Virus record (IMG/VR): IMGVR_UViG_2737471835_000006
Direction: 5' to 3' (one strand)
Length of the DNA: 53,176 nucleotides
Source: a virus
Lineage: Duplodnaviria > Heunggongvirae > Uroviricota > Caudoviricetes
Positions 1 through 53,003 of the stretch are shown here, piece by piece. The notes under the pieces are model-generated. The model was not told the origin of the DNA, ran no database searches, and worked only from the letters and a program-made list of their open reading frames with translations. The position numbers and the translations under genes are program-made. Positions within the stretch are counted from its first letter, which is position 1; each line of letters starts with the position of its first letter.

Positions 1-1011
1 TCAATCATCATCAATGATCACGGGTATATAATATTTTTTATTTCCGTATGCAAAATAAAGTTTTTCGTCTCCGCTGATGAAGTAAAACGCGGTCTTAGGT
101 TCTGCTCCTGTGGGTAGTTTACTCACTACAGCTGCTGCGGGCGGGAGATGCCCATCATGAAATATTGATCGGGCAATCCTATCAGCCCCAACGTATTGCA
201 GACCATTTGCAGCACCGTAGGGAAAGTCAATTTTTAGGCTAGAGGCGTTGTGATCGTAAATCTGCAAATAAGAATTTTCCTTGCGTTCTATATATGCGTC
301 AGGAAATATTCCTCCGGGACTCCAAAATGCTAATTGACCGTTTTTTTTGACCCCGTCAACTGTAGTGGAATAAATTCGGACAGAACGACCGAAGTATAAA
401 TCAAAGTCAGTATAGCATGATGCTGTATTTGTGTTGCCTGCTGAATTTTTCCCTATCTGGATATTGTTATTAAATGTCGCCGGTGAGTCAAACGTGGCAC
501 CCAACAAAAATGTCGCCAATTTTTTGAATTTGTTTTTTTCCAGAAATTCATTTTCCTTATCGAGTTTTGCGAATTTTGACGAGTCAAGACTGGCGGCTGC
601 CGCTGCTGCTGCTGCTGCGCTGTTCGCGCTGTTAGTTTCAGATGTGTGCGCCGCACTGGCGCTGGCGTCTGCTGCTGCTGCAGCATTTTTCGCAGCCGAT
701 ACTAGCTCTTGAATCTCCGCCAACGCAGCTGGCGTCAGTTCGTCTGCGCTAAAATTAGTCAAATAGTCGTTTAACGTGCCGTCAACACTGTCCGGGTTAA
801 CGTTAATCACGCCGAGATATGCCGCACTAGCAGTGACAACGTAAACTCCGGGATTCATATCAAATTTGTACTCACCCGCCGCGCCTGTTTCTTGCTCTAC
901 AACAGTGGTCATTACTACGCGTGAACTCGTGACCCGTGCTGTTAATACTAACTGAACGCCGACAACGGGCTCGCCGACCCCATTTGCGTATGCACCCGAT
1001 ATTATTGCCAT
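1..1011 (-). CDS. Tail fiber protein with lambda Stf-like N-terminal domain and divergent AT-rich C-terminal domain
   Basis: Complete minus-strand ORF, stop codon at 1-3. N-terminal ~120 aa has the same layout as the N-terminus of the Stf fiber at 49720-53001, followed by an Ala-rich linker; the C-terminal half is AT-rich and unrelated. Confidence 0.5.
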   Translation of the reverse strand: MAIISGAYANGVGEPVVGVQLVLTARVTSSRVVMTTVVEQETGAAGEYKFDMNPGVYVVTASAAYLGVINVNPDSVDGTLNDYLTNFSADELTPAALAEIQELVSAAKNAAAAADASASAAHTSETNSANSAAAAAAAAASLDSSKFAKLDKENEFLEKNKFKKLATFLLGATFDSPATFNNNIQIGKNSAGNTNTASCYTDFDLYFGRSVRIYSTTVDGVKKNGQLAFWSPGGIFPDAYIERKENSYLQIYDHNASSLKIDFPYGAANGLQYVGADRIARSIFHDGHLPPAAAVVSKLPTGAEPKTAFYFISGDEKLYFAYGNKKYYIPVIIDDD

Positions 1012-1016
1012 TTCAT

Positions 1017-2060
1017 TTACTCCAGCGACAGTCGCGCAGAGAATCCGTTTTCAGCCAGCGTCAGCGTCAACGTATTGATTGTCCAGTCTCGGTCCTCCTC
1101 TGTCCCGAACCCTTGTGTTGTGACTTTGCATTCTGCAGTCAGCGATACTAAATCGAGCGTTGCTGGCGTTGTGTACGTCATGGAAAACTCTTTTTTAGCC
1201 GCACCGCCCTTGAGTCCTGGCGCAGCTTCTTTCGCTGCATCAAGCGACGGCTCCACTGCCGGCCACTCGATTACAGGATCGCCGCCACTGCCCGTACGCA
1301 ATTCTTTGATCTGCCCCGTTGCTGTATCGTGATATTTGATCAGATATGTTGGTTCCGCATTTTCGCCACCTCCGCCACTATCGCCGTTTTGTCCATTTCT
1401 CGAATAACCCCAGCTGGAGTTATCACGACGCGTGAGCGTGTAGTGCTGAAGCGGTGCTCCGCTAACAGATTCGCCCGCGCCGCGCGGCAGGAATATCCAG
1501 TACCCGCCCGCGGGTTTACTCACCGCATCGAATCTCGTTGCGAGCCGCGACATCAGGTGCATATCTGACTCGCCGACCTGATCGAGTTGCGTGATAACAT
1601 TGTTTGCAAACCGCTTTGATACGCGTGGTTTTAGCCCGTTATCACTCGCTATTGTCGCAACGATATCGCTGACGGTGACGTCGCTCCATGAGCGCGTCTT
1701 TTTGCTCTGAACTGTCGGAGAGCCCTTTGACGCGTTCATCGGAGCCGCTTTTGCTGTGAAATCAACTACCCGAGGTTCACCGCCACTGCTCGCCCCGTCG
1801 ACGATGTATATACCTTTATCGATTATCTGATTACCAAAACCGAGCCCAATGCTAATTTTCACTCCACGGGCCGGAATTTTCAGAGTTTCAGAAACTATTG
1901 CTACGCGGAGTTCGTCTGTCTGTTTACTGGAGCCGCCATAATCAGTCAGCGTGATATTGATCAGCCCTTTTCTTATTTTATCCGTGATGTTTTTATTATC
2001 AGCAGATATATAAAAATTAGGTTTCCACGCCTCCACGCCAGTATTTACGTAATCACCCAT
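1017..2060 (-). CDS. P2 gpD-like tail protein (late control D family)
   Basis: 347 aa; blocks such as TLTDYGGSSKQTDELRV and SWSDVTVSDIVATIASDNGLKP parallel P2 gpD; last gene of a P2-ordered tail cluster. Confidence 0.65.
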   Translation of the reverse strand: MGDYVNTGVEAWKPNFYISADNKNITDKIRKGLINITLTDYGGSSKQTDELRVAIVSETLKIPARGVKISIGLGFGNQIIDKGIYIVDGASSGGEPRVVDFTAKAAPMNASKGSPTVQSKKTRSWSDVTVSDIVATIASDNGLKPRVSKRFANNVITQLDQVGESDMHLMSRLATRFDAVSKPAGGYWIFLPRGAGESVSGAPLQHYTLTRRDNSSWGYSRNGQNGDSGGGGENAEPTYLIKYHDTATGQIKELRTGSGGDPVIEWPAVEPSLDAAKEAAPGLKGGAAKKEFSMTYTTPATLDLVSLTAECKVTTQGFGTEEDRDWTINTLTLTLAENGFSARLSLE

Positions 2061-2063
2061 TCA

Positions 2064-2276
2064 TCAATCCCATAATTGCGTTTCTTTTTTAACCGGTTCT
2101 GGTTCGATTTCTGGTAAAACAATTTTTTCTCCAGCACGAAACACGGCACACATATCAGTTACGCCGTAATTCGAAACCTGATATAAAACAGTCTCTGTCG
2201 TTTTTGACGCTCTCCCGTAGACCGCAAAGCAGATTTGATCGAGACGGTCACCGTCCCGCGTCGTATATGTAATCAT
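2064..2276 (-). CDS. P2 gpX-like tail protein X
   Basis: 70 aa; MITYTTRDGDRLDQICFAVYGR resembles the gpX N-terminus; sits between gpU-like and gpD-like genes. Confidence 0.55.
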   Translation of the reverse strand: MITYTTRDGDRLDQICFAVYGRASKTTETVLYQVSNYGVTDMCAVFRAGEKIVLPEIEPEPVKKETQLWD

Positions 2277-2513
2277 GATTATGAGGCCTCAAATGGAATT
2301 ATTTGCGTGGGTTATCGCTCTGTATATATGGTTAATGGCGAACCCGTTAATATCCATCATTTTATACGTAATACCGTTAGTAATTGCTCTAATAAGGGGA
2401 CATAAAAGCTGCGCAATGGTCGTTATTCTGAATATATTATTCGGATGGATATTTTTGATGTGGATCATTCTGTTGCTGTGGTCCGCTCTCGGTGATAAAA
2501 AACCGAAAGAAGT

Positions 2514-2942
2514 TCAATCCAGCGAAGCTCCGTAATATTCGAGCGTGAGTGAAAAGTCCTGCGATTTTGGGGTCCCTCCTTTCAGAAAACTGTTTTGCGT
2601 TTCTGTTAACTCCCTGATAACCCAGTACCCCTTCACCTCCCCGGTCCCCAGCACCAGTTGCTGGGGTTCTCCCGAGTTCCCCAGTGCCCGCAAATCTGTT
2701 AACAAGCCAATGCCGCACCCATCAAGGAATAAGGCATTTATTTTCCCATCGATCGTGATTGTGGGGTTCGGTCGTCCGGTTATCTGCAATGCGTCGTTTT
2801 TTCCGAACCGTGTTTGCTGAGCCCAGCGCCAGGCGTCACTACGTTGCAGTTTGTTGTACGCTATTGTTGATATAGCAAAAATGAAATCACCCAGGCCGAG
2901 CATAATGTCCTCAGCACCGTTTGTTGCATCACTCATTGTCAC
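2514..2942 (-). CDS. P2 gpU-like tail protein
   Basis: 142 aa; position immediately after the tape measure gene with 4-nt overlap; residue pattern similar to gpU. Confidence 0.55.
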   Translation of the reverse strand: MTMSDATNGAEDIMLGLGDFIFAISTIAYNKLQRSDAWRWAQQTRFGKNDALQITGRPNPTITIDGKINALFLDGCGIGLLTDLRALGNSGEPQQLVLGTGEVKGYWVIRELTETQNSFLKGGTPKSQDFSLTLEYYGASLD

Positions 2943-5511: not shown

Positions 5512-7005
5512 TCAGGCTGTTTCTTTAAAAAGGGAGGCCAGTGCCTCAACTGTATAGTCATTATTAATACAGTACATTAACGTAATTGTTTGTGCCGGAG
5601 ATTTCGGACCAAAATCAACATTAATATAAAGATTGCCAGCGGCCAGACTTTCTTTTGTATTCAGCTCACCGTCTAACCACGCACGCCCTCCGTTAATCGC
5701 ACCCTGCTCCTCTAATTTGTGCAGATATGCGTTTATCGACTCGACAACGTCTGTTCCGAGATGCAGGTCTATCGGGCGATCAATAAAATCTGTCATCATT
5801 GCCCGGGCTATAGAATCTTCAATTACGTCAGCTGTCCGACGAACGCATTCAAACGACCATTGTGGATCCAGACTGCACAGATAGTTACCCCAGTGCCGGA
5901 ATCCATCGTAGCGAATAATGGTGCTGACCTGGCTGGCGTTCAGTAGGTTCGCTGTGCAGTTTGTCTCACCAATAATAAAATCGTCGATTTGTTCAAGCCC
6001 TGTTATTCCATAAATATTTTGATTCGACTTACTCCACCAAAACCCTTTTTCATTATCAATTCTGGCTCGTAAACCAGCGGCGATAGCTGAATATGGACGC
6101 GACAGATCACTGAGATCGCCAGCTGAAAACACACGCGGGCGTAGTATTTCCATGCGCGCGCTATATTTATGGCGGCGGTTAACGACGTCTGCGGGCGATG
6201 CCGTGCGTGGAGAATCAATATAGCCGACTCCACGTAATTTATTTGTGACTACCTCCAGCGCGGCAGCGACGTCGTCATTAGCACTGTAATCAGGTGCAAT
6301 CAAAATTCGTGGAGTCACCTGGTTTATCTGTCCCGATGTTAACATAGCGTTAATGCCGTTGATTACGTTCTCACGCTCTTTTGTCGCGTCTGTGTTTTCG
6401 TCTACGCGAACAACAACAATTAGCGCATCTGTCTGATTTAAAATATCAGTGATGGCTGCGGGGAGAGTGCCTGCTGCACCCAGGAGCGCCGCTTTTTTCT
6501 GACTACCTGCAATTAGTGTGGGTATGTTGACTGGAAATGGAGCGTCAGAACCGCCCGTCAGGCTCGTGACGGGCATCTGATAAACAATTCCATCATTTTT
6601 ACTGGCCTCATCCAACGCTACAAAAATATAATCCTCCGCGTTCCGTCCCTCATTGTGAGTCAGAACGTCTTGTGACAGCACCTCTGGCGTTGTTGTACTA
6701 TCTGTTCCGAGCGTTAATTTTATTGTCCCGTCCGGTAACGTGCTATATCCGTATTTAATTCCAGAAATGCCCTTCTTAATAATTTCAACTGCAAATTTAT
6801 TTCCGTAACTCCCTGAATAAACCGGGAGAAATGTCACCACATTATCTGACAAGGGTGACCCCCATGTTAATGAAGCTCTTCCTCCCAGCCCAACATCCGG
6901 TGCAGTACCAACAATCCCGATAACCGAAATATCTACCGCGCTGATCTCTTTTGTGCCGTCGTCGTATTCAAGCGTGCGGGGGCCGTGCAAAAAATTAGTG
7001 CTCAT
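5512..7005 (-). CDS. Contractile tail sheath protein (P2 FI-like)
   Basis: 497 aa; size, composition and position upstream of the tube gene typical of myovirus sheath proteins. Confidence 0.8.
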   Translation of the reverse strand: MSTNFLHGPRTLEYDDGTKEISAVDISVIGIVGTAPDVGLGGRASLTWGSPLSDNVVTFLPVYSGSYGNKFAVEIIKKGISGIKYGYSTLPDGTIKLTLGTDSTTTPEVLSQDVLTHNEGRNAEDYIFVALDEASKNDGIVYQMPVTSLTGGSDAPFPVNIPTLIAGSQKKAALLGAAGTLPAAITDILNQTDALIVVVRVDENTDATKERENVINGINAMLTSGQINQVTPRILIAPDYSANDDVAAALEVVTNKLRGVGYIDSPRTASPADVVNRRHKYSARMEILRPRVFSAGDLSDLSRPYSAIAAGLRARIDNEKGFWWSKSNQNIYGITGLEQIDDFIIGETNCTANLLNASQVSTIIRYDGFRHWGNYLCSLDPQWSFECVRRTADVIEDSIARAMMTDFIDRPIDLHLGTDVVESINAYLHKLEEQGAINGGRAWLDGELNTKESLAAGNLYINVDFGPKSPAQTITLMYCINNDYTVEALASLFKETA

Positions 7006-7010
7006 TAATT

Positions 7011-7244
7011 TTACTCTCCTGATTCGATTATAATTGGAGCCACATATTCAGCAACATCACCAAATTCACCGCAAGCGGCGCGCTCGTATAACTCTCGGCC
7101 ATATAATGTGGAGTCTGTCTTAGATGCAGTAAATAAAATAGCATTACCGATCCCTTGTATGTCACAGACAATATCAATACTGTTATTCGATGCGCTGGAA
7201 TAGCGCTGTGTTTTTATATTTGAAAAGTTATCAATTGTTATCAT
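7011..7244 (-). CDS. Hypothetical protein in tail fiber assembly (gpG) position
   Basis: 77 aa ORF between fiber and sheath genes; no recognisable motif. Confidence 0.3.
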   Translation of the reverse strand: MITIDNFSNIKTQRYSSASNNSIDIVCDIQGIGNAILFTASKTDSTLYGRELYERAACGEFGDVAEYVAPIIIESGE

Positions 7245-7249
7245 TTGTT

Positions 7250-8212
7250 TTACGCTATCCTCGTGAAATTAGTTGCAAATTTGCCAGTATAGATATCTTC
7301 ACCAGCCCCGGAAGATGGCTCATAGCTCTGGGGGATCAGTCCGCACAATTGCCAAATACCAGGCAATGGCTCACTTCCAAAAGTTAGCGTAAGCGTGGCT
7401 TCGCTCATAGAGCCGACACCTCCGGTATATTTCCATTGAATGCATGCAGGGGAAATTATCGAACCTTGTAACTGATCACCAGGTTTATAGTGCATTACAG
7501 TAGAGTTATCGAATGTAAATCCAGCATAAACAACTGAGCCGACAGCTGCAAACGCAGGCACCGCCGGTGCAGGGTCATCGTTAGCATCAATTAAATCATC
7601 AACGTCTTCTTTGGTGTAATAATTATCAAGATTTACGCCGATATTTTCTCGCGCCGTTTTTTGCGCCACCGTGCCTTTATCTTTAATTTCAGATAAATTT
7701 TTACCTATCTGCAAATATCGTTTATCGGCATCTGCCTGGCTCATTCCGCTACTGTTATCAATAACAACGTTAACAGTAGACGTGCTGGACACCGCGAGAG
7801 TGTATTTATACGTGATTGAAATCAGCGCGCCGTTGCTGTCCGTAGGTTTTAAAATATCCGGTGAACGTGCAACTGAGTACAGTTCCCCTTTATCTGTTAA
7901 TATCCCCACCTCGCGGATGGTATAACCGCCGGTTTCCGGCGGTACGTACAGTGTAAAAATGACCTGATTACCGCTATTTTCTGACGATTTAATATCTCCG
8001 CGATACGTCTCGTGAATTAATGCCGTTCTGGCCGGGTCTGGTGTTACGTCGTCATTTCCGTTCGCGTCACCAATAACGAATTTATTTAGCACTACCGGCA
8101 CGCCTGACGCCAGCGCCGCAGCTTCTAATTGCGCGCCACGGTCTGTCAGCACCGCATAAACTTGGCTCGCGTTAGCTTTCAGATTTGATTTTAATTTAGC
8201 CATTGGGTCCAA
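7250..8212 (-). CDS. Tail fiber protein, P2 gpH-like N-terminal domain
   Basis: 320 aa; N-terminal region (RTALIHETYRGD ... YVPPETGGYTIREVGILTDKGELYSVA) parallels the gpH N-terminal baseplate-attachment domain; C-terminus unique. Confidence 0.7.
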   Translation of the reverse strand: MDPMAKLKSNLKANASQVYAVLTDRGAQLEAAALASGVPVVLNKFVIGDANGNDDVTPDPARTALIHETYRGDIKSSENSGNQVIFTLYVPPETGGYTIREVGILTDKGELYSVARSPDILKPTDSNGALISITYKYTLAVSSTSTVNVVIDNSSGMSQADADKRYLQIGKNLSEIKDKGTVAQKTARENIGVNLDNYYTKEDVDDLIDANDDPAPAVPAFAAVGSVVYAGFTFDNSTVMHYKPGDQLQGSIISPACIQWKYTGGVGSMSEATLTLTFGSEPLPGIWQLCGLIPQSYEPSSGAGEDIYTGKFATNFTRIA

Positions 8213-8828: not shown

Positions 8829-9745
8829 CCCATCTGTACGCTGAGTTTAATTTCGGTGCAATATGGTGCCTGTCCGACACCTGCAATGACGTCCTCTGTC
8901 GGCGATATCAGAATCACACGTTCGGTGCCGTCACGATGTATTGCGTCGTAAATTCCCGACAGGGCTGCTGTTGCCCCGATTTTATGTTGCGTGGTCACGT
9001 AGACCGCCAGGTCGCTCTGCGCGCCGTTGAGTAATACGTTCTGGTCGGGACCGAGCCCCGCTACGATAACGGCCTCAACCCGGTAATTCAGGTTCGACGC
9101 AGGTTTTACGGTCACGAAATCAGTTAGTGGCCGAGTGTCGTCAGGAGACAGGGCCGCATTCACTGTATTCAGTAGTGATTGCGGGGGTACACCGTCGCCT
9201 GTCCGGGACAAAACGTACATATCGACGTACCCTGGCTGAGTCACAGGCGGGCCGTATGCCTGCGCTGACAGAACATCGGGATCACTCGATAGCGCGAAAT
9301 AGTTATACGCGTTTGTACTGCCGGCAGTATTACGCGCGTACCATGATAGTTGTATGCGATGACGATACTCGTCGTCACTCTCGTAAACCGCTTCAGTCGG
9401 GGGGACTGAGTCGGGATTAGCTGGCGTTATCAACAGCCGCAGGCAGTCAAAATTAGCGCCAATCTGGTCGAGGTCAGTCCCTTTTGCAAACGCGAGCAAT
9501 ACAGCGAGCATCCCCTGATTTACCCGAGCTGTAATAATGATTTCTCTGTATGCAACTATTTCCAGCAGTTTAACTGCCGGGTCTGACTCCAGGAGTGCGT
9601 TAAATTGTGGATATAATATCTGCAGCTCTGACAGTAGATTAGATTTAACATCTGAAAATAACGGGGTTTTAACGAATGCTGGCGGCGGCAGCAGACTCAT
9701 ATCAATAGTTTTCACTATCGAGTTCTGAACTGTTGATGTTATCAA
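8825..9745 (-). CDS. Baseplate protein, P2 gpJ-like
   Basis: 306 aa; size and position between gpW-like and gpI-like genes; 4-nt overlaps on both sides. Confidence 0.7.
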   Translation of the reverse strand: MITSTVQNSIVKTIDMSLLPPPAFVKTPLFSDVKSNLLSELQILYPQFNALLESDPAVKLLEIVAYREIIITARVNQGMLAVLLAFAKGTDLDQIGANFDCLRLLITPANPDSVPPTEAVYESDDEYRHRIQLSWYARNTAGSTNAYNYFALSSDPDVLSAQAYGPPVTQPGYVDMYVLSRTGDGVPPQSLLNTVNAALSPDDTRPLTDFVTVKPASNLNYRVEAVIVAGLGPDQNVLLNGAQSDLAVYVTTQHKIGATAALSGIYDAIHRDGTERVILISPTEDVIAGVGQAPYCTEIKLSVQMG

Positions 9746-10131
9746 AATATCAGCTCCATATTATTAAACTCTAATCGCTGTTGTGTTTCGATATCTGTTG
9801 CGATAATTAATATTGTTATTTTCCCGATATCCACTGCTAACACATTTATTCTGTCAATTCTGACGCGTGGTTCCCAGCGTGCTATTGCGCCAGCACTTTC
9901 CATGATTATCCGTATAGCCAGTGATGGATCTGTGGGATTATCAACGAGGTCAAATAATTTGCTCCCATATTCCGGCAGCATTACACGGGTTCCCAGCGGG
10001 GTCGTTAAAATATCAACGATAGACTGACAAATGTGGTCAACCCCGGATAAAGGTTTACCAGTGTTACGGTCCATTCCAAGCATATTTACGCCATTGGTTG
10101 GTTCGGTTGTTGTGTTTCCCCGTCCGGGCAT
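9742..10131 (-). CDS. Baseplate wedge protein, P2 gpW / gp25-like
   Basis: Region MLGMDRNTGKPLSGVDHICQSIVDILTTPLGTRVMLPEYGSKL matches the gpW/gp25 signature; true start may be the internal Met at about 10083, just after the gpV stop. Confidence 0.7.
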   Translation of the reverse strand: MPGRGNTTTEPTNGVNMLGMDRNTGKPLSGVDHICQSIVDILTTPLGTRVMLPEYGSKLFDLVDNPTDPSLAIRIIMESAGAIARWEPRVRIDRINVLAVDIGKITILIIATDIETQQRLEFNNMELIF

Positions 10132-11003
10132 GTATGAGTGTGTCCGTTATACGTTGTGCGGACTTCAGTTATTGTGCCTTGTCGATCCTGCACCTCTTGT
10201 CCTGCTAACACACTACCGCGAGTTGTGATATTACCTGTTCCACCGTTATCTCCAGTGACAGAAATATCGTTACGGAATGTCGCTAATTTATCTACAATTA
10301 ATGTCTCGGTGATATGCGTTGGACCAGCTAGTGTTATCCCACCCGGAGCCCACGCACTGATTGTTTGAGCTGTCAGCGATATTCTGTTCGCAGCAGTAAC
10401 ACTAACAGAACTCGTTGCTATAACGTTCACTAAATCAGCATGTGCGTTAATTGTGTCAGTTGCTGTCACATTAATAATGTCAGCGTCTGCGTTAATTAAT
10501 TTTCCACCATGAATATTGACAACGTTTTCGCTATTAATAGTAACGTCTGCACGTCCGAATATTTCTATTTCAGACTCACCGAGTATTTTTACTACGCCGT
10601 CCGGTACGCCCTGCCATGTCAGAGTGTGATTTTTTGTGTTATACGTCATCGTAGCCCCGTCACAGTATGCAGTGACATGATCATGGGGGTCATTACTGGG
10701 CGGAGCTTTGTTGTCAATGTGCAGCCCGAGCATAACTACGCCGTTCCGCGTGTCCCCGCCCTCAGAAACAACGGTAACGGGATCACCCACTGATGGAGCG
10801 CTCCAATCCACTCGTTCCGATGTCGCGTGCGTGAACCACTGCAGCCAGCCTGACTGGTGCTCGCCGCCAAATGAGACGCGGCAGCGAGGAGGATTCATTT
10901 TAACTGCAGCTATCGTGCCGCGTTTAACTGCGTCACGCAGCCGGCGCGCGTTCTCCGCTGCAGCATATTCATCGTCCGATTGGGCCATAGTAGTCGCCCT
11001 CAT
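10086..11003 (-). CDS. Baseplate spike/assembly protein, P2 gpV-like with C-terminal extension
   Basis: 305 aa; first gene of the V-W-J-I-H block. Confidence 0.6.
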   Translation of the reverse strand: MRATTMAQSDDEYAAAENARRLRDAVKRGTIAAVKMNPPRCRVSFGGEHQSGWLQWFTHATSERVDWSAPSVGDPVTVVSEGGDTRNGVVMLGLHIDNKAPPSNDPHDHVTAYCDGATMTYNTKNHTLTWQGVPDGVVKILGESEIEIFGRADVTINSENVVNIHGGKLINADADIINVTATDTINAHADLVNVIATSSVSVTAANRISLTAQTISAWAPGGITLAGPTHITETLIVDKLATFRNDISVTGDNGGTGNITTRGSVLAGQEVQDRQGTITEVRTTYNGHTHTCPDGETQQPNQPMA

Positions 11004-11505
11004 GTTCTGCGCCGATATCTGGCGCTATTCCGACATATAAATTTTTCAGGGTTCCCTGTGATGGGTAATCGAAAATATCGGGACCAACGCCGACAACCTG
11101 CGTGAACGACACGCACTGAACTGAATGCGAACCGACTGACTGCCCGTTTTTAATCCAGTCACACGGTTCCGCGTCGCTGAATTTTGCCGGTTTAGTTCCG
11201 GGACCGAACATTCGCCCATCAATCCAGCTCGTCATATAGAGCGCTGCATTCTGCGATTTCAGTCCGTACCGATCCGCAGCAAACTCACGCAGCAAATACA
11301 AATTACACGACAGCTCGACTGACTGAATTGAGCCTGGAACCGATTCGTCACTCTGTGACCAGTTGCTGATTTCCAGGAACAGAGCTGGCGTTTCAAATCC
11401 TGCCGGAATTTCTGGATAAATTCCGAATGTTTTGATGAACGGTATTTGTAAAACCGCGCCTTTAACGCGATCAAGATATTCGTCAAATGCATCCAGTCCG
11501 CTCAT
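10969..11505 (-). CDS. Hypothetical virion protein (tail completion position)
   Basis: 178 aa between head-completion genes and baseplate genes; no motif recognised. Confidence 0.4.
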   Translation of the reverse strand: MSGLDAFDEYLDRVKGAVLQIPFIKTFGIYPEIPAGFETPALFLEISNWSQSDESVPGSIQSVELSCNLYLLREFAADRYGLKSQNAALYMTSWIDGRMFGPGTKPAKFSDAEPCDWIKNGQSVGSHSVQCVSFTQVVGVGPDIFDYPSQGTLKNLYVGIAPDIGAEHEGDYYGPIGR

Positions 11506-12182
11506 AATCGTTTACCTGTTTTAGGGTCTACGTGAACGCGTCCTTTCACTCGACCGCGCAAATCTTTCTCAAAAAAGCCCATGAAAACAGGGCCAATGTT
11601 TTCAAAAATATAATCATCGATAGCATCCTCAAGCGCGTCGTGCACAGGTACGCGAGCCTCTTCGATTCCTCCGCGAGCCAGTCGAATCCAGACGCTTTTC
11701 GCACCGTAGCGTTTCGCTACGAATGAATCTGGCCAACTAATCATCGCCAGCCCTGCACTTTTGGGCGTAAAAGTTGCCCCTCGAGCGCCTTTTTTTGTTT
11801 TCAAAAATTGACCGGTCTCTGGATTGCGAGGCTGCTTCTGCTTCCTGGGATTTTGTAATTGCCCCTTTAGCTCAGATACACGGAAATCGTTCAGGCCGTA
11901 CCAGAGTTTTACGCTACTCAGATCTCCTGCCCCTTCTTTTGTAAAATTGCGGCGCTTAATGAACGGTTTGATTCGTTTATTTACGGCCTTATGATTTTTA
12001 GCTGCCAGTGCAGTCAAAATCATTCCTGCTGAAATTCGGTGCATATGCTTTGCAGTTCGGTTCAGCGCTCTGTTGTATGCCATCAGCATCTGATGTTGCG
12101 TCGCGCTGATTTCGACTCTGAGCTGCTCCAGCGCCGAAACATCGATATCGAACATCTGCGCGTTACTACGTAAATCGGCCAC
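11502..12182 (-). CDS. Putative virion morphogenesis / tail completion protein
   Basis: 226 aa basic protein; position equivalent to P2 R/S. Confidence 0.4.
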   Translation of the reverse strand: MADLRSNAQMFDIDVSALEQLRVEISATQHQMLMAYNRALNRTAKHMHRISAGMILTALAAKNHKAVNKRIKPFIKRRNFTKEGAGDLSSVKLWYGLNDFRVSELKGQLQNPRKQKQPRNPETGQFLKTKKGARGATFTPKSAGLAMISWPDSFVAKRYGAKSVWIRLARGGIEEARVPVHDALEDAIDDYIFENIGPVFMGFFEKDLRGRVKGRVHVDPKTGKRL

Positions 12183-12213
12183 GGTTCCCCCTTAAGTGGG
12201 ACCGCGGTCCCAC

Positions 12214-12594
12214 TTAGTATTTTGAATACTCGCTGTTTTCGCTGGACGTGTGAGGCTCTAAAAAAATATTCGTGAGACCGATGCCATCCGGTTGAGGCTC
12301 TTTAACCACGTAATCGGTCCAGTCAGACCAGGTAACAGAGCCGTCAGCAGCGATACTGCGCTGCTTTGGGACCTGGACAACGTCACGCGCAACAACGCCA
12401 GCGACGTCGTCTGAAAGCGCTGTCAGGCTCGTTACTGTACCGGTAATAAAACCAGCGTGAGGAACGTCAACGCGCGCGTAAGGCTCGTTGAAAATAGCGA
12501 TAATAGGGTCGGTTTTACCGCGTAATTTAACGGGCCATCCCCACTCACGGATCATCTCCTCGTCGCCAGCCCGGAGGTCATCGTAGTAGCTCAT
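12214..12594 (-). CDS. Head-tail connector protein (lambda FII position)
   Basis: 126 aa directly after the FI-like gene with 4-nt overlap. Confidence 0.5.
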   Translation of the reverse strand: MSYYDDLRAGDEEMIREWGWPVKLRGKTDPIIAIFNEPYARVDVPHAGFITGTVTSLTALSDDVAGVVARDVVQVPKQRSIAADGSVTWSDWTDYVVKEPQPDGIGLTNIFLEPHTSSENSEYSKY

Positions 12595-43882: not shown

Positions 43883-43967
43883 CGGTCTAATTCTAAGTGA
43901 ATATTCTAAGTCCGTTCTAACAGGGGGATCGACGGTGAAAAGTGAGTGACGTAAGTCATTGATAAAG

Positions 43968-44037
43968 TGGCGGAGAGAGGGGGATTTGAACCCCCGGTAG
44001 AGTTGCCCCTACTCCGGTTTTCGAGACCGGCCCGTTC
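43968..44037 (-). tRNA. tRNA-Ser (anticodon CGA) 3' fragment; att core copy, not a complete gene
   Basis: Minus strand reads anticodon arm CCGGT-CTCGAAA-ACCGG, long variable arm, T-arm GGGGG-TTCAAAT-CCCCC, acceptor 3' strand TCTCTCC and CCA; no complementary 5' acceptor strand exists upstream. Confidence 0.6.
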
Positions 44038-44163
44038 ATCAAACAAAACAGCAACTTAGCTCACATTATGAGGAAAAGTATCTTTTTTGTACTATGTAAA
44101 TTCAAAGGGTTAGCCTCATTTCCCAGATGGTTTTCTCAACACTATTAGTTGTGAGCCCTTGCA

Positions 44164-45266
44164 ATGTTCATTAATATACACCACACAAATAATTCACAGA
44201 TATTGCAAAATGCTCAGGTCAAAAATAAAATAAAACGTGTTGATCGTCTGCTCGGTAATGAATCTCTTCATCACGACATCCCCCTGATTTTCATAAACAT
44301 TATTTCCATGCTGACGAGCAAGCTGTCACTGTGTGTCATCGCCGTTGACTGGAGTGGATACCCCTCTCAGGAGTATCACGTACTCCGCGCCAGCCTGATT
44401 TGCGATGGACGTTCGATTCCATTGCTGAGTTGGATAGTTCCTTCGGAAAAACAGCAAAATGCTAAGATACAGCAAGCCTTTCTTAATACTCTTTCCGAAG
44501 CGGTAAACCCAAAAGCAAGGGTAATCATCGTCGCGGATGCAGGGTTTCAGAATGCCTGGTTTCGGCACGTAAAATCACTCGGCTCGGATTTTATTGGCCG
44601 GATACGAGGCAATAAACAACTACATCTGGCAAGAAAAGGGGAATGCTGGTTCAGGCGTCAGGAATTACAGGCCAGTAACAAACCTGAATATCTGGGGCCG
44701 GGGACGCTTTCCCGGGCGGAATACGCCCGTTGCGATGGTCATTTTTATTTGCACAAAAAAGAGCCGAAAGGCCGGAGAAATAAACGTTCGCGTTGTGGTA
44801 TAGCCAGACCATCACAGATAAAAGATGCCAGGTCGGCGGCAAAAGAACCATGGTTAATATTCAGCAGCACAGATGACTTTAAACCGCGAGAAATCATGAA
44901 GTTATACAGCCACCGAATGCAGATTGAGCAAAACTTCAGGGATGAAAAAAGTGAGCGTTTTGGGTTCGGTCTGCGAGCCAGTTGCAGCTGTTCGGCAGGA
45001 AGAATGCTGGTACTGAGCCTGCTGGCAACACTGAGCACAATAGTGCTGTGGCTTATTGGCTATCACGCTGAAAATCAAGGAGATATCAGGCCAACAGCAT
45101 TAAAACGCAGCGGGTAATCTCGCATCTGACGTTAGCGGAGAATGTCTTACGACACTCCCCGCTAATTTTAAAACGAACGGTGCTAAGCACCATTCTTAAT
45201 CACCTCGCCAGAACCTACCAGAATATGGTGTTGGTTTATTAGCGCTGATTTATGGGGATCCCTCAG
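44164..45266 (+). mobile_element. IS4-family (IS10-like) insertion sequence remnant with disrupted transposase
   Basis: 317-aa ORF 44164-45117 collinear with the IS10 transposase core (KRVDRLLGN, VIIVADAGF, SAAKEPWL, YSHRMQIEQNFRDEKS) but short at both ends; terminal repeat CTGAGGGATCCCCATAAAT (reverse strand) at 45248-45266; no left end found. Confidence 0.6.
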
Positions 45267-45407: not shown

Positions 45408-47111
45408 CTATGTGGGGTCGACCAACCAACCTTCAATATAATGGAAAGGAACTGGGTATCGGTAACAGCGACACGCTGTAAGAACTAATGGTGCATACCC
45501 TTTAATCACGGCTGACATTCTCTTAAACGAATCTGCATTATTACACTCTTGTGCAATGTGTTTTATTGCTAATTCGCCATTCATCGGGAAATCTGTTGAC
45601 GCTGAGCCATGTGTATCTGAGTTCGAGTACATATATTGTTCACTGTATTGATTTGGATACCAATACTGTAGCGTGCTATGTGCCAGTTTTTCAGTAGCAA
45701 ACTCTTCCAAATCTTTGCTTAAAGAGTCTAATTTATACAGAGAGCAAAAGACTGTTAACAGAGGATATAAAATACTAGCCTCAGTAACCTTATTCTTATA
45801 AATCTTGTCAGTTTTATCTTTATTCCTATGTTCAATCAGTTTTTCGTAAGTTTCATATATAATTGGATACATTCCATTGATCTCAAAAGAGAATATACAT
45901 CTATTAACCATTTCCGATAGCCAACTTTTCACAAACTCATCGAGCTCTGAATTATTTGAGAGTAACATTAGAGCTAACCCAATATCTATCGCCTGAGAAT
46001 CTTTTTGCGGTGAGAGCAGAACCGGATTGTTGATAACTAATAGACGAATTGACTTTGTTATTTTCCTGAGATGTATACATAACCTTTCTTGTTCTTTGCT
46101 CTCTCCATCAATTGGTGGGTTCTCTGCATAATTCTTAGACAACAAATCTAAAATCCAGTGTCCCTTGACGGATAAACGACCTAGCACATCAAAAAGCTTA
46201 AAGTTTATATCAATAGAGCACGGGGAGCGAACAGCATGAGATAAAGCATATTTAAATTCAACATACGGAATTAAACAACGTTCAATATAGCAATCAGTAA
46301 TTTGCTGGTAGGTATCTAAAATGCTATCAAATGACTTTGAAGGCCTATTCTTTCCGGTATAGTGTTCTTTTACTTTATCCCAAGCTAACAGCAATGCTCG
46401 TTCTGATGAAAGATATGCTGATTCTAAATTCCCGCCATCACGACACCAAGCAAATAAAACCCATAGACAAACATTTATCCGTGTTATCGATGAGGCAACA
46501 GAATCTGAATCTGTAGCGTTTTTCAGAACATCATTAATCAATAGAAAGAAGTAATTGCTAGAAGTCTCTGGTTCTTCAAGTAAAGCCAAAGATTTTCTTA
46601 ATAAGGTCTGGCTGGAACTAGGTAGTAATTCTTCTTTCAACAAATGCTGCTGGATAAGCTCAGATATTTTATCACCATTCCACTCTTCAAAAGAAATATT
46701 ACCTTGAGTATTTCGTGTTTCATACCCAGACACCTCTTGCCTGATCCCTGAGCTAACATCTCCACCAAAGCATAAGCAAATAACTATTTTTTTATCTCTA
46801 TGTTCGGGCGGTAAACGACTTGGTATAAATGAATCTTGAATCTCATCTAACGAAGGTCTAAGAGCCTGATCTGCGTTTCCATTCCATGTCTCACGAGTAA
46901 GGTTTCCAGATTTAACAGAAAATAAATAGACTTTTGTCTCTTCACCATTTATTTGGCCTACAGCCGCTATATCTACTCCATACTCTTTCACTCCACGGGT
47001 TGGCGAAATAAACACATTCATCCCCATACTGCTCAACAAATCTGGCAGTATAGCATCTAACTCTGCTCGTTCTTTTAATGAAGCCAAGTATTGCTTAAGA
47101 ATTAATTTCAT
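45408..47111 (-). CDS. Uncharacterised large protein with Mrr-type restriction-endonuclease-like N-terminal domain
   Basis: ATG start at 47111 lies 1 nt after the upstream gene's stop (the track's 47126 start is a GTG). N-terminal SPTRGVKEYGVDIAAV ... KVYLFSVKSG resembles the Mrr catalytic-domain pattern; rest helical; AT-rich. Confidence 0.5.
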   Translation of the reverse strand: MKLILKQYLASLKERAELDAILPDLLSSMGMNVFISPTRGVKEYGVDIAAVGQINGEETKVYLFSVKSGNLTRETWNGNADQALRPSLDEIQDSFIPSRLPPEHRDKKIVICLCFGGDVSSGIRQEVSGYETRNTQGNISFEEWNGDKISELIQQHLLKEELLPSSSQTLLRKSLALLEEPETSSNYFFLLINDVLKNATDSDSVASSITRINVCLWVLFAWCRDGGNLESAYLSSERALLLAWDKVKEHYTGKNRPSKSFDSILDTYQQITDCYIERCLIPYVEFKYALSHAVRSPCSIDINFKLFDVLGRLSVKGHWILDLLSKNYAENPPIDGESKEQERLCIHLRKITKSIRLLVINNPVLLSPQKDSQAIDIGLALMLLSNNSELDEFVKSWLSEMVNRCIFSFEINGMYPIIYETYEKLIEHRNKDKTDKIYKNKVTEASILYPLLTVFCSLYKLDSLSKDLEEFATEKLAHSTLQYWYPNQYSEQYMYSNSDTHGSASTDFPMNGELAIKHIAQECNNADSFKRMSAVIKGYAPLVLTACRCYRYPVPFHYIEGWLVDPT

Positions 47112-47112
47112 T

Positions 47113-48837
47113 TTACATTCTCTCACTACGACATGTTATCAAAAAATAATCTAGTAACACGGGATCTAAAGCATCCAACCTTGGCATTTCAGTAGAGTGA
47201 GAAAAAGTCTGCATTTGCATTTCCTGTCGTATGGATTCCCCATCACCTTGATGTATATAATAAATAGAACTGTTCCCGTATAATAAAATTTTAGGTTTCG
47301 AGAACATTCTAAATAAAGAAAATTCCGATGCTTCTTCGATAGCTTTTTGCATACTTCTGTCAACATTTTTCCAATAAATGCTTAAATTTTCGCTGGGTGC
47401 TTTTAGTTCATTAAGTTCAGATACTTTTTCAATACCAGTCTGATGGAGTTTATACTTTGCAAGCAATCGCTCACATAGATGTTCCTGGATGCCGCTATCA
47501 ATGCATGATTGAAAGAAGCGTTTAAGTTCTCCAGGGTAACTTAAAAGCAAAGGGAAGTACAAAATACCCTCAAGCTTTTCAATTGTGTTTTCCGAAGCCA
47601 CATCTGCAATAGAAAGAATAAATTTTGCAGTTTCAACTGGCCGTGTAAATAACCATCCTATAGCCTTACGACTAATAAAAACTTGCTTTATATCATTATC
47701 CAATAAATCCAATTCCGCCTTTAGTTCAATTTCCTCACCCGTAGCATCATGAAGTAAATCTAAAATACCATGACAAAATTGTTTTTCTCCACCCAGAAGC
47801 CATTTTGTAATGATGTGATTAAGTAGTTCTTGATGCTTACTTATTAATTCATTAGAAAAATAGTCCAGCGATTTAAATGTAACACCTGCTATTAAAGTTG
47901 ACTCCAATAATTCCACAGCAAGCGAGTACTTACTTTTCTCAGCTAACATGACCAATATATAATCAATATTACCTATAATACCTTTATGATCACAGGACAC
48001 ATTAGTTAATTTCTTAAGCATGATATACAGAATACTATCTGGAAGAATCTCCGATTGAAATGCAACAATACTTGAAATTATCTGAAGAACCTCTGTAGAT
48101 TCTCTCTTAACAAAAGCAATTAAAAACTCTTCTATTTGCGGCCAGTAAGATGGAAACCTTTTCCCAAATTGGAGTGCAGACATCAATATCGACGCACAAC
48201 AATCATTATCACTCTCGCTAACACCATTGTTTCTAATTTGCTCCCAAATTAAGTTAGCCTTTGTCTCATCAATATCTAACTGTCCCAAAGTAAAATAGCC
48301 TTGATTTCTGATCATTGCATTTCTATTAGAAATGAGTCTTTCTGTCATCTGGATAGCTGTTATGACACTATCTGCGTCGTAAGCAAGGAGCGAGCTTGAA
48401 AGAAAAGGGGCATATGCATTCAAATCACTTTGTGCAAGGATAAACTCAACACTATCTCTAGAGCGAGATGCTTTCACACTACAGTAACGCTCATAGGCTT
48501 TATAGATTGTACCAATAGTTGCCCCTCTCCCGACCTGTTGCACCAATTGAACCAGACAATGTAGAACATCCTCAATTCTTGCATCTATCAAAGGTAGCGC
48601 TTCTTCAAACGTTTGTAGAATAGTAAAAAAATTACTACCGTAGGATTTTTTATCAATACCTTTTACCATTTTGAGGATATCAATCACACCAGTGTTGTGG
48701 AGTTCAGCTAGCGCTAATGCTAAACTTCTTTCTTCGGTATGTAATTCTTGAGCATATAAATCACAAACTAGAGCAAGCAGATCTTCTGCCGTTTCACTTG
48801 CATTCAGCAACTGGCCTCTTGTTTCTTCTAACGACAT
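47113..48837 (-). CDS. Uncharacterised large alpha-helical protein, first gene of a two-gene operon
   Basis: Start placed at ATG 48837 (MSLEETRGQ) with GAGG about 9 nt upstream; the track's 48852 start is a GTG. No P-loop or other catalytic motif seen; AT-rich. Confidence 0.5.
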   Translation of the reverse strand: MSLEETRGQLLNASETAEDLLALVCDLYAQELHTEERSLALALAELHNTGVIDILKMVKGIDKKSYGSNFFTILQTFEEALPLIDARIEDVLHCLVQLVQQVGRGATIGTIYKAYERYCSVKASRSRDSVEFILAQSDLNAYAPFLSSSLLAYDADSVITAIQMTERLISNRNAMIRNQGYFTLGQLDIDETKANLIWEQIRNNGVSESDNDCCASILMSALQFGKRFPSYWPQIEEFLIAFVKRESTEVLQIISSIVAFQSEILPDSILYIMLKKLTNVSCDHKGIIGNIDYILVMLAEKSKYSLAVELLESTLIAGVTFKSLDYFSNELISKHQELLNHIITKWLLGGEKQFCHGILDLLHDATGEEIELKAELDLLDNDIKQVFISRKAIGWLFTRPVETAKFILSIADVASENTIEKLEGILYFPLLLSYPGELKRFFQSCIDSGIQEHLCERLLAKYKLHQTGIEKVSELNELKAPSENLSIYWKNVDRSMQKAIEEASEFSLFRMFSKPKILLYGNSSIYYIHQGDGESIRQEMQMQTFSHSTEMPRLDALDPVLLDYFLITCRSERM

Positions 48838-49086
48838 ATTCCTTAACCTCACAAAACTGACATTAGATCAATCCGTACTTTGTAAGATTAGAAGAAACAG
48901 GTCAATTGTAACCTCCCCATTTCATACATCTTGATGTTCGCAACTTCCGCCACAGTTCTCGAATCAATGCCATACTGTCATGAAGTTTTGGTAGAAAGAT
49001 ATTTAGGTTCACTCATACCAGAATACGGCAAAATTGATAACGACTATAAATCATTCAATACTCGCACTATCAGAAGTTCACCAGCC

Positions 49087-49135: not shown

Positions 49136-49720
49136 TTACATTGTGTCTGGTTCTTCCGGCCACTCAATATCAGGTGCAGTTGTTGTATTAACACGGTTCA
49201 GCAACACCCGATACTTCTTCCAGGCTTCCAGCAACGAGGTTTCTTCCTCCGTTGCAATTTCCAGATCTGCAGCATCCTGAAGCGGCGCAATATGCTCACT
49301 GGCTACCTGCATCAGGCTGTTTTTTGTTTCTTCCGCCTCCCGGATCCGGAACAGTTTTTCTGCTTCTGCATCTTTCACCCAGGCTGTGCCGTTCCACTTC
49401 TGATATTCCCCTCCCGGCGACAACCAGGTAACATTTTCCGGTAACGGACCGAGTTCAGAAATAAATAACGCGTCGCCGGAAGCCACGTCATAAACCGTTT
49501 TACCCCGATGGTCTTCAACGAGATGCCACGATGCCTCATCACTGTTGAAAACAGCCACAAAGCCAGCAGGAATATCTGGTGGTGCAATATCGGTACTGTT
49601 TGCTGGCAGACCTGTATGAGGCGGAATATATGCGTCACCTTCACCAATAAATTCATTAGTCCCGACCAGCAGATTATAAATTTTTATGGTCCGTGGTTGT
49701 TCACTCATTCTGAATGCCAT
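49136..49720 (-). CDS. tfa: Tail fiber assembly protein, lambda Tfa
   Basis: 194 aa, near-identical over its length to lambda Tfa as recalled ([18 protein letters not shown] ... [51 protein letters not shown]). Confidence 0.85.
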
Positions 49721-52700
49721 TATGCAAGCCTCACAATATAGTTAAATGCGATGTTTTTGACGGTGTTTTCCGCATTACCAGCAGCGTTAACGGTGATGGT
49801 GTGTCCATGTGAACCAATCGCAACGGAGTGCGTATGAGCACCAATACCGACAGTATGCGCGTGTGCACCTGCAGATGCTGCTGTGCCGGACAGTGAGTGG
49901 CTATGATTACCATCTGTACTGGTATTAGCTAACCACCCCGTAGACATACCTACTGAGCCTTGTACACCCCAGGTATTTTGACCTGAGCTTGTATAACCAT
50001 ATTGATAAGTATCTTTAAAAACACTGGGGTTAAATCGACGGCCATCTCTATGGCTGTGATTACCAGCTGCATTCGTGCTGCCACTTAAACTATGAGTATG
50101 CGCACCAGTGTTATTCGTGGATTTAGTGCCGTAATCAAACGATGATGTGGTTTTCGTACCCAAATCCGTACTGGATACGCTGGCGCTGTGGGTGTGCGAT
50201 TTAATGCCGTCCTGTTCCTGAGACAATACGGCACGACCACTGGCGGGCTTGCCCTTAATCGTCCAGCCACGCATATCAGGGATCACGCCTGACGGATAAG
50301 CGGCTGCAAGTTTCGGGTAAGCAGATTTGTCAAAAGTCTGCCCCTGCATCAGGGCATAACCAGACGGAACGGTATCTGATGGCCACGGGATTGGTGCGCC
50401 GACTGGGTAGCTTTCTGGTGGAAGATTTTTCGAGGTATAAACTTCTGCCCAGTCTTCCTCAAAACCATAACCGTCTCTTGAAGAACGGTAGAACAGACCA
50501 CCATTTCTGTAATGCGCCTTCATCTGCAGGGTCCGGCAACTTCCGACTCCGGTATAGAAGTTAACCAGAATATAGCTGTCGCCAGAGCGGGTGACATTGT
50601 AAGCGCCTGATTCGGCATTCCATGGAACGCCCCCATCCGCATCGGCATATGTATCCGTTGCCCTTCTGGCAAAAGCAGCCACATGCGCGGCGGTTAAAGT
50701 GATATCAGTAGAACCATCAAATGGAACACCGGATATTTTTCTTGCAGTCTGAAGTTTTGTAGCAGTTGCAGCATTACCAGTGGTGTTCTGATTACCCGTA
50801 GTGTTTACACCTGGAAGGTTAATATTTGCAGAACCGTCGAAAACAACTCCACCGATAGATCTTGCCGTCTGCAATTTCGTGGCTGTACTTGCATTACCAT
50901 TCAATGAACCAGTTAATCCACCTGTAACAGACAACGGACCTGAAACTGTTCCTCCGGTTGTTGGCAGTGCTCCAATATCTGATGGTGTAGGTTTCTGATG
51001 TGAGCTATACATCGTATAAACAACACCATAGGTAACGCTGGAAGGCTTACTCACTGAATATGTTGGCGAGGTATAAACAGAAACTGACGCATTTGCAGTA
51101 CAATCCCAATGGATATTTACACTCGTCGCATAATTGCCAATCTCAACGTAAATATCATATGTATCGCCGGATGTGTTGATCCAGGCGAAATTCGTTAATC
51201 CGACGGCTGTACGCTTCCACAAAGCCCCGGTAATTCCTTTGGGGTTTCCATTGCCTGCTCGTAGAACCAGTTCTGAAATGCCTGCCTGATGTGGGGAGCC
51301 GACGTTGTAACCAGCGCCACCAATCAATGCGATGTAAACGATGGAACTCGCTTGTGGCATGGTAACCGTAGCCAGTTTGAACCACCCAGCCCCGCCAGAG
51401 AAAGACATCGTTACTGAATTTAAAGTACCAATATCTTTCGGCGTTAATGTTATATCCGCAGTCAGTGCTTTTCCGTTAACTTTTCGGTTAGATGGCACCC
51501 TGCTATTCGCATTGTCATTGGCTGCTTTAACTGCTTTTGGCGTTGCGGCCAGCGATTCACTGGTGCTATCAACAGCACTGCTAAGTTTCACAACACCTTT
51601 AGTTGTAAGGCTTGCGTCTTCCATCGCAACTGCACCGGCAATCTCTTCAGCACGATCAGCAGCAGTTTCCGCACGGGTCGCAGCGGATTCAGCAGCAGTT
51701 TTGCTCTGAGATGCTGCCGTCGCACTGCCTGCCGCCTCTGTTGCTTTCGTGGATGCCGTCGCGGCGCTGCCCTTCGCTGCTGACGCCTGTCTGGTCGCCT
51801 CATCTTTTGAAGCAGACGCAGATGATGCCGATGACGCCGCCGAACTGGCGGACGATGCGGCAGCCGTTTTTGAGGATTCTGCGCTGGTTTCCGACGCTTT
51901 CGCGTTCGTCTCGGATGTCTTCGCTGCGGAAGCAGACCTCGCTGCTGCGCTGGCCTGTACAGCGGCTTCGCCAGCCTTCGTTGTGGCTGTTGAAGCGGAC
52001 GATGCAGCACTTTCTGCCGATTTTCCGGCGGCGGTGGCACTGGCTGAGGCCTGCCCGGCACTTGTTGACGCGGCACTGGCAGACGACGCAGCCGCTGTTT
52101 TTGAGCCTGCCGCAGCTGAGGCACTCTGTCCCGCTGCCGTTTCAGAAGCCTTGGCGTTCGTCTCGGACGTTTTTGCCGCCTTCGCAGAATTTGCTGTCGC
52201 CGTTGCCGAGGAAGCTGCGCTGCTGGCGCTCGAGGCTGCGCTCGTTTCTGATGATTTTGCCGCCTCTTTTGAAGCCGACGCATCCCGGGCTGAGGTGGCA
52301 GCTTCTGACGCTTTCGTGGTCGCGGTGGATGCTGAAGTGGCTGCTGATTGTTGTGACGCTGCCGCATTCGTTTCTGACGTTTTTGCCGCAGCGGCACTGG
52401 TGGCCGCCGCGCTTTTTGAGGACTCTGCAGCGGCAGCACTTTTTGATGCTTCAGTGGCCTTTGCTGATGCCGTTCCTGCGCTGGAAGACGCTGACTGAGC
52501 CGACGAAGCGGCCTGTCCGGCTGACGTGCTGGCTGCGCGTGCTGAGCCTGCAGCATCAGTCGCATGGGTTGCCGCCTCACGGGCTGATGTGCTGGCATCG
52601 CCGGCTGACTTCTTCGCGGCTGCCGTGTTCTGTGCCACCGCGGACGCGTTACGCGCCACCTCTTCCACCATCAGTTCAAAACGGCGCAGTGCCTCAGGAC

Positions 52701-52995: not shown

Positions 52996-53003
52996 ATTCA
53001 CCC

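Follow-up and report, generated by a model that had tools for sequence, protein, structure and literature searches.

What is a side-fibre anchor of the lambda type doing in a phage with a contractile, P2-like tail? The question is raised by the first gene in a 53,176-nucleotide (nt) stretch of DNA (IMG/VR record IMGVR_UViG_2737471835_000006; hereafter the window), a segment of an Escherichia coli chromosome whose first 44 kb are 100% identical to strain D217-5, with a prophage of about 44 kb integrated at a tRNA-Ser gene. In this phage a lambda-like head goes together with a late operon under Q antitermination and with a contractile tail like that of P2, and the gene in question, encoding 336 amino acids (aa), follows its gpD-like baseplate hub gene. 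The answer that we favour, at somewhat better than an even chance, is that the product gives this temperate phage a short accessory fibre with swapped modules, most likely docked on the neck. The gene has the following parts, numbered as in the window:

1 to 1011, minus strand: putative accessory fibre gene, a complete open reading frame (ORF) of 336 aa, with its ATG at 1011-1009 and its TGA at nt 3-1.
700 to 1011, minus strand: anchor (collar) domain, aa 1-104, of the PF08400/lambda StfN type and a P2-tail-associated subtype.
694 to 713, minus strand: recombination joint, at about aa 100-106, located by sequence divergence among variants.
580 to 699, minus strand: Ala/Ser-rich stalk, aa 105-144, recognized from its sequence and from BLAST matches to the lambda-type Stf coiled-coil region.
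4 to 579, minus strand: distal domain X, aa 145-336, predicted to be all-beta, with 40% GC and belonging to a rare family.

The protein is labelled 'prophage tail fiber N-terminal domain-containing protein' in RefSeq (WP_047620999.1), and its PHROG matches are to tail-fibre families only, all in the N-terminal part, phrog_2636 and phrog_4128 being the best two. A preliminary description of this DNA, made from the letters alone, had given it an Stf-type N-terminus, and this assignment is upheld by a match of residues 3-125 to the Pfam family PF08400 ("Stf N-terminal"; E=5.6e-23) and by one of the anchor to the lambda Stf collar structure (PDB 9E7M; E=2e-8, and E=1.6e-17 in a profile search). 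The N-terminus is also 36% identical to that of a canonical lambdoid Stf encoded at 49720-53001 in the same window. A profile search further recovered a weak match over the whole domain (residues 4-114, E=0.031) to the 'collar spike protein' of the Vibrio myovirus XM1 (7KJK), i.e. gp40. Alignment with hhalign of 21 Stf collars against seven homologues of the gp40 N-terminal domain gave 98.5% probability (E=1.8e-15, 99 columns), and the P2-context collars alone matched the gp40 domain at 95.8%, with reversed and shuffled controls at E>=0.047. XM1 gp40 moreover matches the same two PHROGs, phrog_2636 and phrog_4128. As judged from these comparisons, the collar of lambda Stf is homologous to the neck-spike anchor of XM1, and the two form one adaptor superfamily.

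Structures are available for both. The lambda entries, 9E7M/9MGH, comprise the N-terminal 94 residues of gpStf, and 12 such domains form a collar at the junction of the gpV tube ring with the gpM distal-tail-protein ring, each trimeric fibre being tethered to three collar domains via flexible linkers (PMC12617516). In XM1, six gp40 trimers (18 copies) sit on the neck proteins gp4 and gp5, with the Ig-like N-domains binding the hexameric head-completion protein and the tail terminator and being followed by a helical stalk and a tailspike (PMC10457771). The two solved docking modes of the superfamily are thus both on axial hexameric rings, and the one on a contractile tail is at the neck. In a contractile tail the junction of the tube with the distal-tail protein would lie beneath sheath and baseplate, which makes an StfN gene in a P2-type cluster puzzling if its anchor is taken to work as in lambda.

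The anchor itself carries a mark of the tail with which it is found. Among StfN-type loci gathered from viral and genomic collections, anchor subtype matched tail type in 8/8 P2-type and 2/2 JNE151685-type siphovirus contexts, two of them checked blind: from the collar type, P0006 was predicted and found to lie after gpD in a P2-type cluster, and P0005 after gpJ in a siphovirus. The seven P2-context collars, from E. coli and Salmonella, constitute one clade, 58-100% identical, with a private 6-residue deletion between the predicted fifth and sixth strands, whereas none of them exceeds 45% identity to any siphovirus collar. In P2-type prophages, genes of the StfN type stand last on the late strand; they directly follow gpD in L012 and L016-L020, and are separated from it by a reverse-strand ORF in L011 and L045. 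In the Mu-type prophages L009 and L031 they come after a fibre gene and its chaperone gene, one is found in the Baseplate_J-type element L024 (called PBSX-like by gene order only), and in siphoviruses they classically follow gpJ. The distal domains, X and an alternative domain Y described below, cross these anchor classes. Such a combination of tail-matched anchors and crossing distal domains is the pattern of a tail-specific adaptor with exchangeable binding modules, and counts against a dead relic. As a separate observation, an anchor of the gp40/StfN type makes up a whole protein of ~100 aa in the Vibrio N4-like podovirus PG11 (Schitoviridae; L041) and in phage K482 (L043), where it may be a separate adaptor subunit.

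In the mechanism that we propose, the fibre would be translated from the end of the Q-dependent late transcript, three chains would form a coiled-coil stalk (the trimer being assumed), and the three flexibly linked anchor domains would dock on a hexameric ring that lies exposed along the axis of the tail. The rings of a sheathed tail expected to be exposed are those of the neck, namely the gpFII-like head-completion ring and the tail terminator, and XM1 gp40 docks likewise. Besides the gpH fibres of its baseplate, the particle would then bear a whorl of short fibres at the neck. The ligand of domain X would be a structure on the host surface, probably a glycan, and the domain would serve as a helper adhesin that is not essential but makes adsorption faster or orients it, in the manner of the lambda and T5 side fibres and of the role proposed for the XM1 collar spikes. 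Taking the parts of this proposal singly, it is likely that the fibre is accessory and attached to the virion; given that, analogy with XM1 makes the neck a slightly favoured docking site. The candidate partners are:

10969 to 12594, minus strand: candidate docking-partner neck genes, their role as partners being projected from the XM1 structure (PMC10457771).
10969 to 11505, minus strand: neck gene encoding a phrog_1072 protein.
11502 to 12182, minus strand: neck gene of the tail-completion/Neck1 type.
12214 to 12594, minus strand: gpFII-like head completion protein (PF05354).

Several points weigh against this proposal. The only deposited 'phages' of the prophage family are prophage sequences and are devoid of the fibre gene. 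The tail module is present in 455/5,426 complete E. coli genomes, and about 430 of these 455 are without the gene, which is accordingly not needed, so that a specific partner cannot be inferred from its company. The neck site is extrapolated by homology from a single structure, and the neck proteins encoded here fall in different PHROGs from XM1 gp4 and gp5. The stalk is short: with a length of roughly 10-15 nm, a fibre on the neck would come within reach of the cell only once the tail had bound, and could thus act only indirectly. The trimer is, as stated, assumed.

The principal alternative is a seat on the baseplate, and it turns on the position of the gene, for which the relevant neighbours are:

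1017 to 2060, minus strand: gpD-like baseplate hub gene, adjoining upstream (phrog_52, E=1e-94; PF05954, E=2.4e-5, at 24.1 bits and under the Pfam cut-off of 30.1 bits).
1020 to 1023, minus strand: GGAG ribosome-binding site, read directly; it overlaps the last part of gpD and lies 8 nt ahead of the start codon.
7250 to 8212, minus strand: primary gpH-type baseplate fibre, with the PF12571 N-terminal adaptor (E=1.3e-31).

The preliminary description had recognized both a gpH-like fibre at 7250-8212 and a fibre gene after the gpD-like gene, and both hold: the former has its PF12571 adaptor, and the latter is an intact ORF that starts 5 nt past the gpD stop, with a GGAG site whose overlap with the end of gpD would be consistent with co-translation in the late operon. 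Upstream, the genes run in P2 order through gpX, gpU, tape measure, tail assembly chaperone, tube and sheath, and then through the gpH-type fibre, gpI, gpJ, gpW and gpV. The description had also envisaged two fibres on a P2-type baseplate. The claim survives as to a second fibre-type gene of the same phage but is unsupported as to the baseplate, the protein having no PF12571 and its homologues docking on axial rings; the Stf N-domain is not a baseplate adaptor. The dual receptor specificity that the description drew from it is plausible, though putative.

A second baseplate fibre, giving two receptor-binding fibres side by side and dual specificity, is accordingly a reading that we regard as unlikely. 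It would fit a gene placed directly after the hub gene D in the tail operon, it would put a short fibre near the cell surface, where it makes more functional sense, and X is also carried by side fibres rooted close to the tip of siphovirus tails. Myoviruses with two sets of baseplate fibres are well known, e.g. among the BASEL phages (PMC11990801). Against this, the P2 gpH and Mu S fibres (PF12571) share with the post-gpD protein a place in a P2-like tail cluster and an exchangeable distal part, but the latter is without their adaptor and is not placed after gpI, and hence is no paralogue of the primary gpH-type fibre. Moreover, both solved docking modes of the anchor are on axial hexameric rings and not on wedge proteins. 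In a P2-type tail, as in the R2 pyocin baseplate, the corresponding tube-initiator and hub rings are reportedly enclosed by wedges and sheath. Finally, the gene lies away from the baseplate genes in the Mu-type and some of the Salmonella relatives, where it is simply the last late gene.

If the fibre is indeed an adhesin, its specificity would reside in domain X. Sequence searches of X against Pfam, PHROG and PDB gave no family match, and the Collar domain is also absent from it. An exhaustive HMMER scan of 1.84 billion representative proteins recovered 7 X proteins, a profile search of 5.8 billion clusters recovered 11 clusters, and a word-indexed search with X alone as query recovered one fragment. 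All named matches are from Salmonella and Enterobacter, the E. coli example being the window itself. The complete ones with a PF08400 anchor are 320-409 aa long, with an Ala-rich stretch after the anchor and X at the end. Domain X has a conserved C-terminal motif, DGLKF..D..E....H.G.LPPAA....LP......FYF.....LYF..G.KKY. AlphaFold2 (AF2) with a 13-sequence alignment yielded an all-beta model of moderate confidence (pLDDT 62), for which Foldseek found nothing at E<1e-3 in BFVD; the single-sequence model of the whole protein (pLDDT 33) was of no use.

Outside this setting, a siphovirus-type prophage at the same chromosomal site in JNE151685 has a side fibre of 915 aa with X (82% aa identity) in its interior, followed by the GF43-type domain. 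Comparison of the two copies gave dN=0.088 and dS=0.57 (dN/dS about 0.15), values that indicate purifying selection on X. We considered whether the protein in the window is a truncated X-Y fibre with a lost tip, and rejected this as the principal explanation, fibres that end after X being the rule in Salmonella, in Enterobacter and in a siphovirus context. The alternative distal domain Y, of ~470 aa (phrog_13714, phrog_7032), is encoded at 2473-4299 of L005 (GF43) and at 7572-10319 of L014 (JNE151685), and its sequence features seem to resemble those of an alpha/alpha-toroid glycosidase, in which case the same anchor would bear a tip of the depolymerase type.

The border between anchor and distal part is a site of exchange. 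Three variants have the first ~100 residues in common and then diverge fully: the window type of 336 aa, the GF43 type of 608 aa, which matches the tail-fibre PHROGs 13714 and 7032, and the ETEC1738 type of 315 aa. Up to the joint, the GF43- and ETEC1738-type variants are 87-99% identical in nt, and beyond it they are unrelated; the homology to the JNE151685 siphovirus fibre spans nt 26-694. A recently swapped receptor-binding end, encoded by much more AT-rich DNA over the C-terminal ~200 residues, had been surmised in the preliminary description. The common ~100 residues with divergence after them, and the presence of X in a siphovirus fibre, bear out the swapped distal module. The compositional part proves correct in moderate form: residues 145-336 have 40.1% GC (36% at third codon positions, GC3) as against 50.0% in the anchor, 63% in the Ala-rich stretch and 48.4% in the prophage as a whole, a value within the lowest 5.6% of equal-sized prophage windows and the lowest 0.4% in the late-gene region.

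The stalk between them, aa 105-144, is presumed to form a short trimeric coiled coil. It aligns with the lambda-type Stf shaft, although helices appear only in the low-confidence single-sequence AF2 model, and amounts to a single 'AAHTSETNSAN..' unit, of which the JNE151685 fibre has ~5 repeats. There, the stalk (L014, about 9650-9950; aa about 120-245) is made up of ~5 tandem copies of a unit of ~21 residues (AAHTSETNSANNAAAAANSAA). The length of these fibres appears to be set by the repeat number of the stalk unit.

Of the E. coli genomes with the tail module, 25 hold any part of the fibre gene and 20 hold it at full length with at least 97.7% nt identity, the ORF being intact in all 20/20; domain X is carried by ~0.4% of complete E. 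coli genomes. In most relatives gpD leads directly to a lipoprotein gene, with no fibre gene between; since most close relatives do without it, the gene is dispensable for the phage lineage. The copy in E24377A differs at 1/1,008 nt (99.9% identity), whereas the 3-kb region comprising the gene and its flanking tail genes is only 97.6% identical, implying more divergent flanks, and such a near-identical gene amid a diverged region points to a cassette that recently spread across diverged prophages. Among deposited phages, tblastn with the full protein found nothing at E<=1e-5, the anchor alone recovered only lambdoid Stf proteins at <=39% identity, and no isolated, characterised phage with the fibre protein was found.

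Does the gene belong to this prophage at all, or to an element next to it? The prophage is delimited by a repeated attachment (att) sequence, one copy of which is in the window:

43952 to 44028, no strand: 77-bp att core, the 3' part of the tRNA-Ser gene serU, adjoining the integrase gene.

The direct repeat of this core is found in D217-5, 349-425 bp beyond the left end of the window. Because these two repeats bound the prophage, the fibre gene is the last gene inside it, and the notion that it is part of an adjacent element was rejected on the same ground. Between the repeats are also the lambda-like head genes (terminase, gpW, portal, protease/scaffold, decoration and major capsid proteins, gpFI and a gpFII-like protein), the Q antiterminator, the lysis, immunity and replication genes, and an integrase gene adjoining tRNA-Ser. 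An invertase or chaperone gene just beyond the window, which the preliminary description had advised looking for, is not there in D217-5: the gene is followed by 349 bp of non-coding DNA and then by att. Those 349 bp hold a 98-nt 3' remnant of the lipoprotein gene (phrog_890), which is intact in relatives, and this truncation is the trace of a past deletion or replacement event.

The remnant enters into a further alternative, namely that the gene is a relic of recombination, an stf fragment acquired from a lambdoid or siphovirus prophage of the same integration site that is carried but unassembled. In favour of this, the JNE151685 siphovirus prophage occupies the same yodB/serU site and has X, Y, the lipoprotein gene and the DNA next to att in common with these prophages (81-94% nt identity); the truncated lipoprotein-gene remnant downstream shows that deletion or replacement took place, and most relatives are without the fibre gene. 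However, the anchor is not of the siphovirus type, and its clade is found only with P2-type tails, in two genera, and is intact despite divergence down to 58% identity. Further, the low dN/dS of X, the unbroken ORF in every full-length E. coli copy and the retention of proteins of the same architecture as terminal late gene in Salmonella and Enterobacter are not what a relic would show. We therefore deem this explanation improbable. 

That the gene is a lysogen-expressed moron, made from the att-side end of the prophage for the benefit of the host (by superinfection exclusion or as a surface adhesin) and no part of the virion, is very improbable: morons do accumulate at the att-proximal end, some relatives have a reverse-strand gene and a ~300-bp gap after gpD with room for a promoter of its own, and other morons are nearby (a superinfection immunity gene here, the lipoprotein gene in relatives), but the 336-aa sequence has no signal peptide or membrane segment, the domain at its N-terminus serves to anchor a protein to the virion in the two solved cases, the gene is in late-operon orientation a mere 5 nt from gpD, an interval in which a scan showed no promoter-like site, and Q-antiterminated late transcripts would extend into it. 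Around the fibre gene as a whole, promoter and terminator scans gave the same values as shuffles, and nothing was drawn from them.

The neck-fibre proposal can be set against the closest known systems, among them gpStf of lambda (Ur-lambda). The two have in common a homologous N-terminal anchor of ~95 residues with beta-sheet-plus-helix structure (36-38% identity), followed by an Ala/Ser-rich stretch (in gpStf a coiled coil after a flexible linker, and presumably the same here), a position as last structural gene of the late operon, dispensability and a modular distal end. Lambda gpStf differs in its 774 aa, ~400-residue coiled coil, gp37-like tip and Tfa chaperone gene, compared with 336 aa, ~40 stalk residues, an unrelated distal domain and no chaperone gene following here. 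It forms a 12-mer collar on a non-contractile tail, whereas here the tail is contractile and the junction covered, and the anchor here belongs to a separate clade with the 6-residue deletion. The lambda gene follows that of the central fibre J, the present one the gpD of a sheath/tube/baseplate cluster. 

XM1 gp40 (PDB 7KJK) is the sole solved case of the anchor on a myovirus, and is located on the neck. It has a homologous Ig-like N-terminal anchor (hhalign 98.5%), the same PHROG matches (phrog_2636 and phrog_4128) and the same layout of anchor, helical stalk and distal binding module (the last two putative here) on a contractile-tail phage. It differs in being 839 aa long, with a ~100-residue stalk and a Det7-like tailspike, in having its gene far from the tail genes, in an anchor identity of ~23%, and in its neck partners gp4 and gp5, which are of other PHROG families. 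Where gp40 ends in a beta-helix tailspike, X is a 190-residue all-beta domain with no significant structure or sequence match. T5 pb1, the DT57C LtfA-B fibres on the p132/LtfC collar and T4 fibritin are comparable as non-essential lateral or neck fibres on an axial ring, and the T5/DT57C side fibres and fibritin whiskers speed adsorption or sense the environment. They have no sequence relationship to the 336-aa protein; further, the T5 collar is a separate protein, and the fibritin of T4 differs in fold and has as its main role to help in the assembly of the long fibres.

Some further features of the tail operon were noted. A superinfection-immunity gene (PF14373, phrog_1039) lies on the opposite strand between gpX and gpU, at 2275-2535 (plus strand), and an insert of this kind is also found in the Salmonella relative L045. 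A 77-aa ORF after the gpH-type fibre (7011-7244, minus strand) matches the first ~70 positions of the 'tail fiber protein' PHROGs 1795 and 1141, a module that recurs as residues 244-300 of the ETEC1738 post-gpD fibre variant (L006, 3352-4299) and may be a chaperone-like or adaptor piece common to both fibre slots. The sheath gene (5512-7005) has 75-78% aa identity to L017 and L018, while the neighbouring tube, tape-measure and gpD genes have 93-99%, by which measure it is a mosaic patch in the tail module.

At the integrase-side end, identity to D217-5 ceases at 44038, 19 nt before the 5' end of tRNA-Ser; a DDE_Tnp_1 transposase gene lies just beyond, at 44164-45117, and ARAGORN found no tRNA in the window. 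For these reasons this copy of the tRNA gene is judged to be truncated here, presumably by a further insertion at the same site. Next come two adjacent genes of 572 and 579 aa (45408-48852, minus strand), with no Pfam family and with PADLOC matches to OloB (E=3e-207) and OloA (E=3e-110), which we take to constitute Olokun, an anti-phage defence system. The pair is located just outside the prophage, flanked by an insertion sequence and by what is left of a lambdoid fibre gene. A lambdoid side-fibre locus at 49136-53001 (minus strand) is of another element, supplies a third fibre gene in the window and was used as an internal comparison; it comprises a canonical Stf of 1093 aa at 49720-53001, with PF08400 (E=9e-72) and a Collar domain, and the gene of a 194-aa Tfa chaperone (Caudo_TAP).

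The existence of the gene is in itself not surprising, RefSeq having a generic tail-fibre annotation for it and dual-fibre myoviruses being familiar. What is new is the rare distal domain X, the homology of the lambda Stf collar with the XM1 anchor and the tail-specific anchor clades in temperate enterobacterial myoviruses, of none of which our literature searches found a description. The homology joins two separately solved structures in one adaptor family whose subtypes match different tails, and fibres may be graftable onto myovirus particles or tailocins via the matching anchor. X, for its part, is a compact candidate receptor-binding module without known relatives. If a swappable, neck-mounted adhesin is indeed what this gene encodes, temperate P2-like and Mu-like enteric phages would have a second, easily exchanged host-recognition site, which host-range prediction from baseplate fibres alone would miss. 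More broadly, and tentatively, enterobacterial temperate myoviruses of the P2-, Mu- and further Baseplate_J-types may carry optional, exchangeable sets of neck fibres, encoded at the end of the late genes and beside att, with X as a new receptor-binding fold that serves siphovirus tip and myovirus neck fibres alike. Were this so, neck-mounted adhesins would be a general and overlooked layer of host-range control in the prophages of E. coli and Salmonella.

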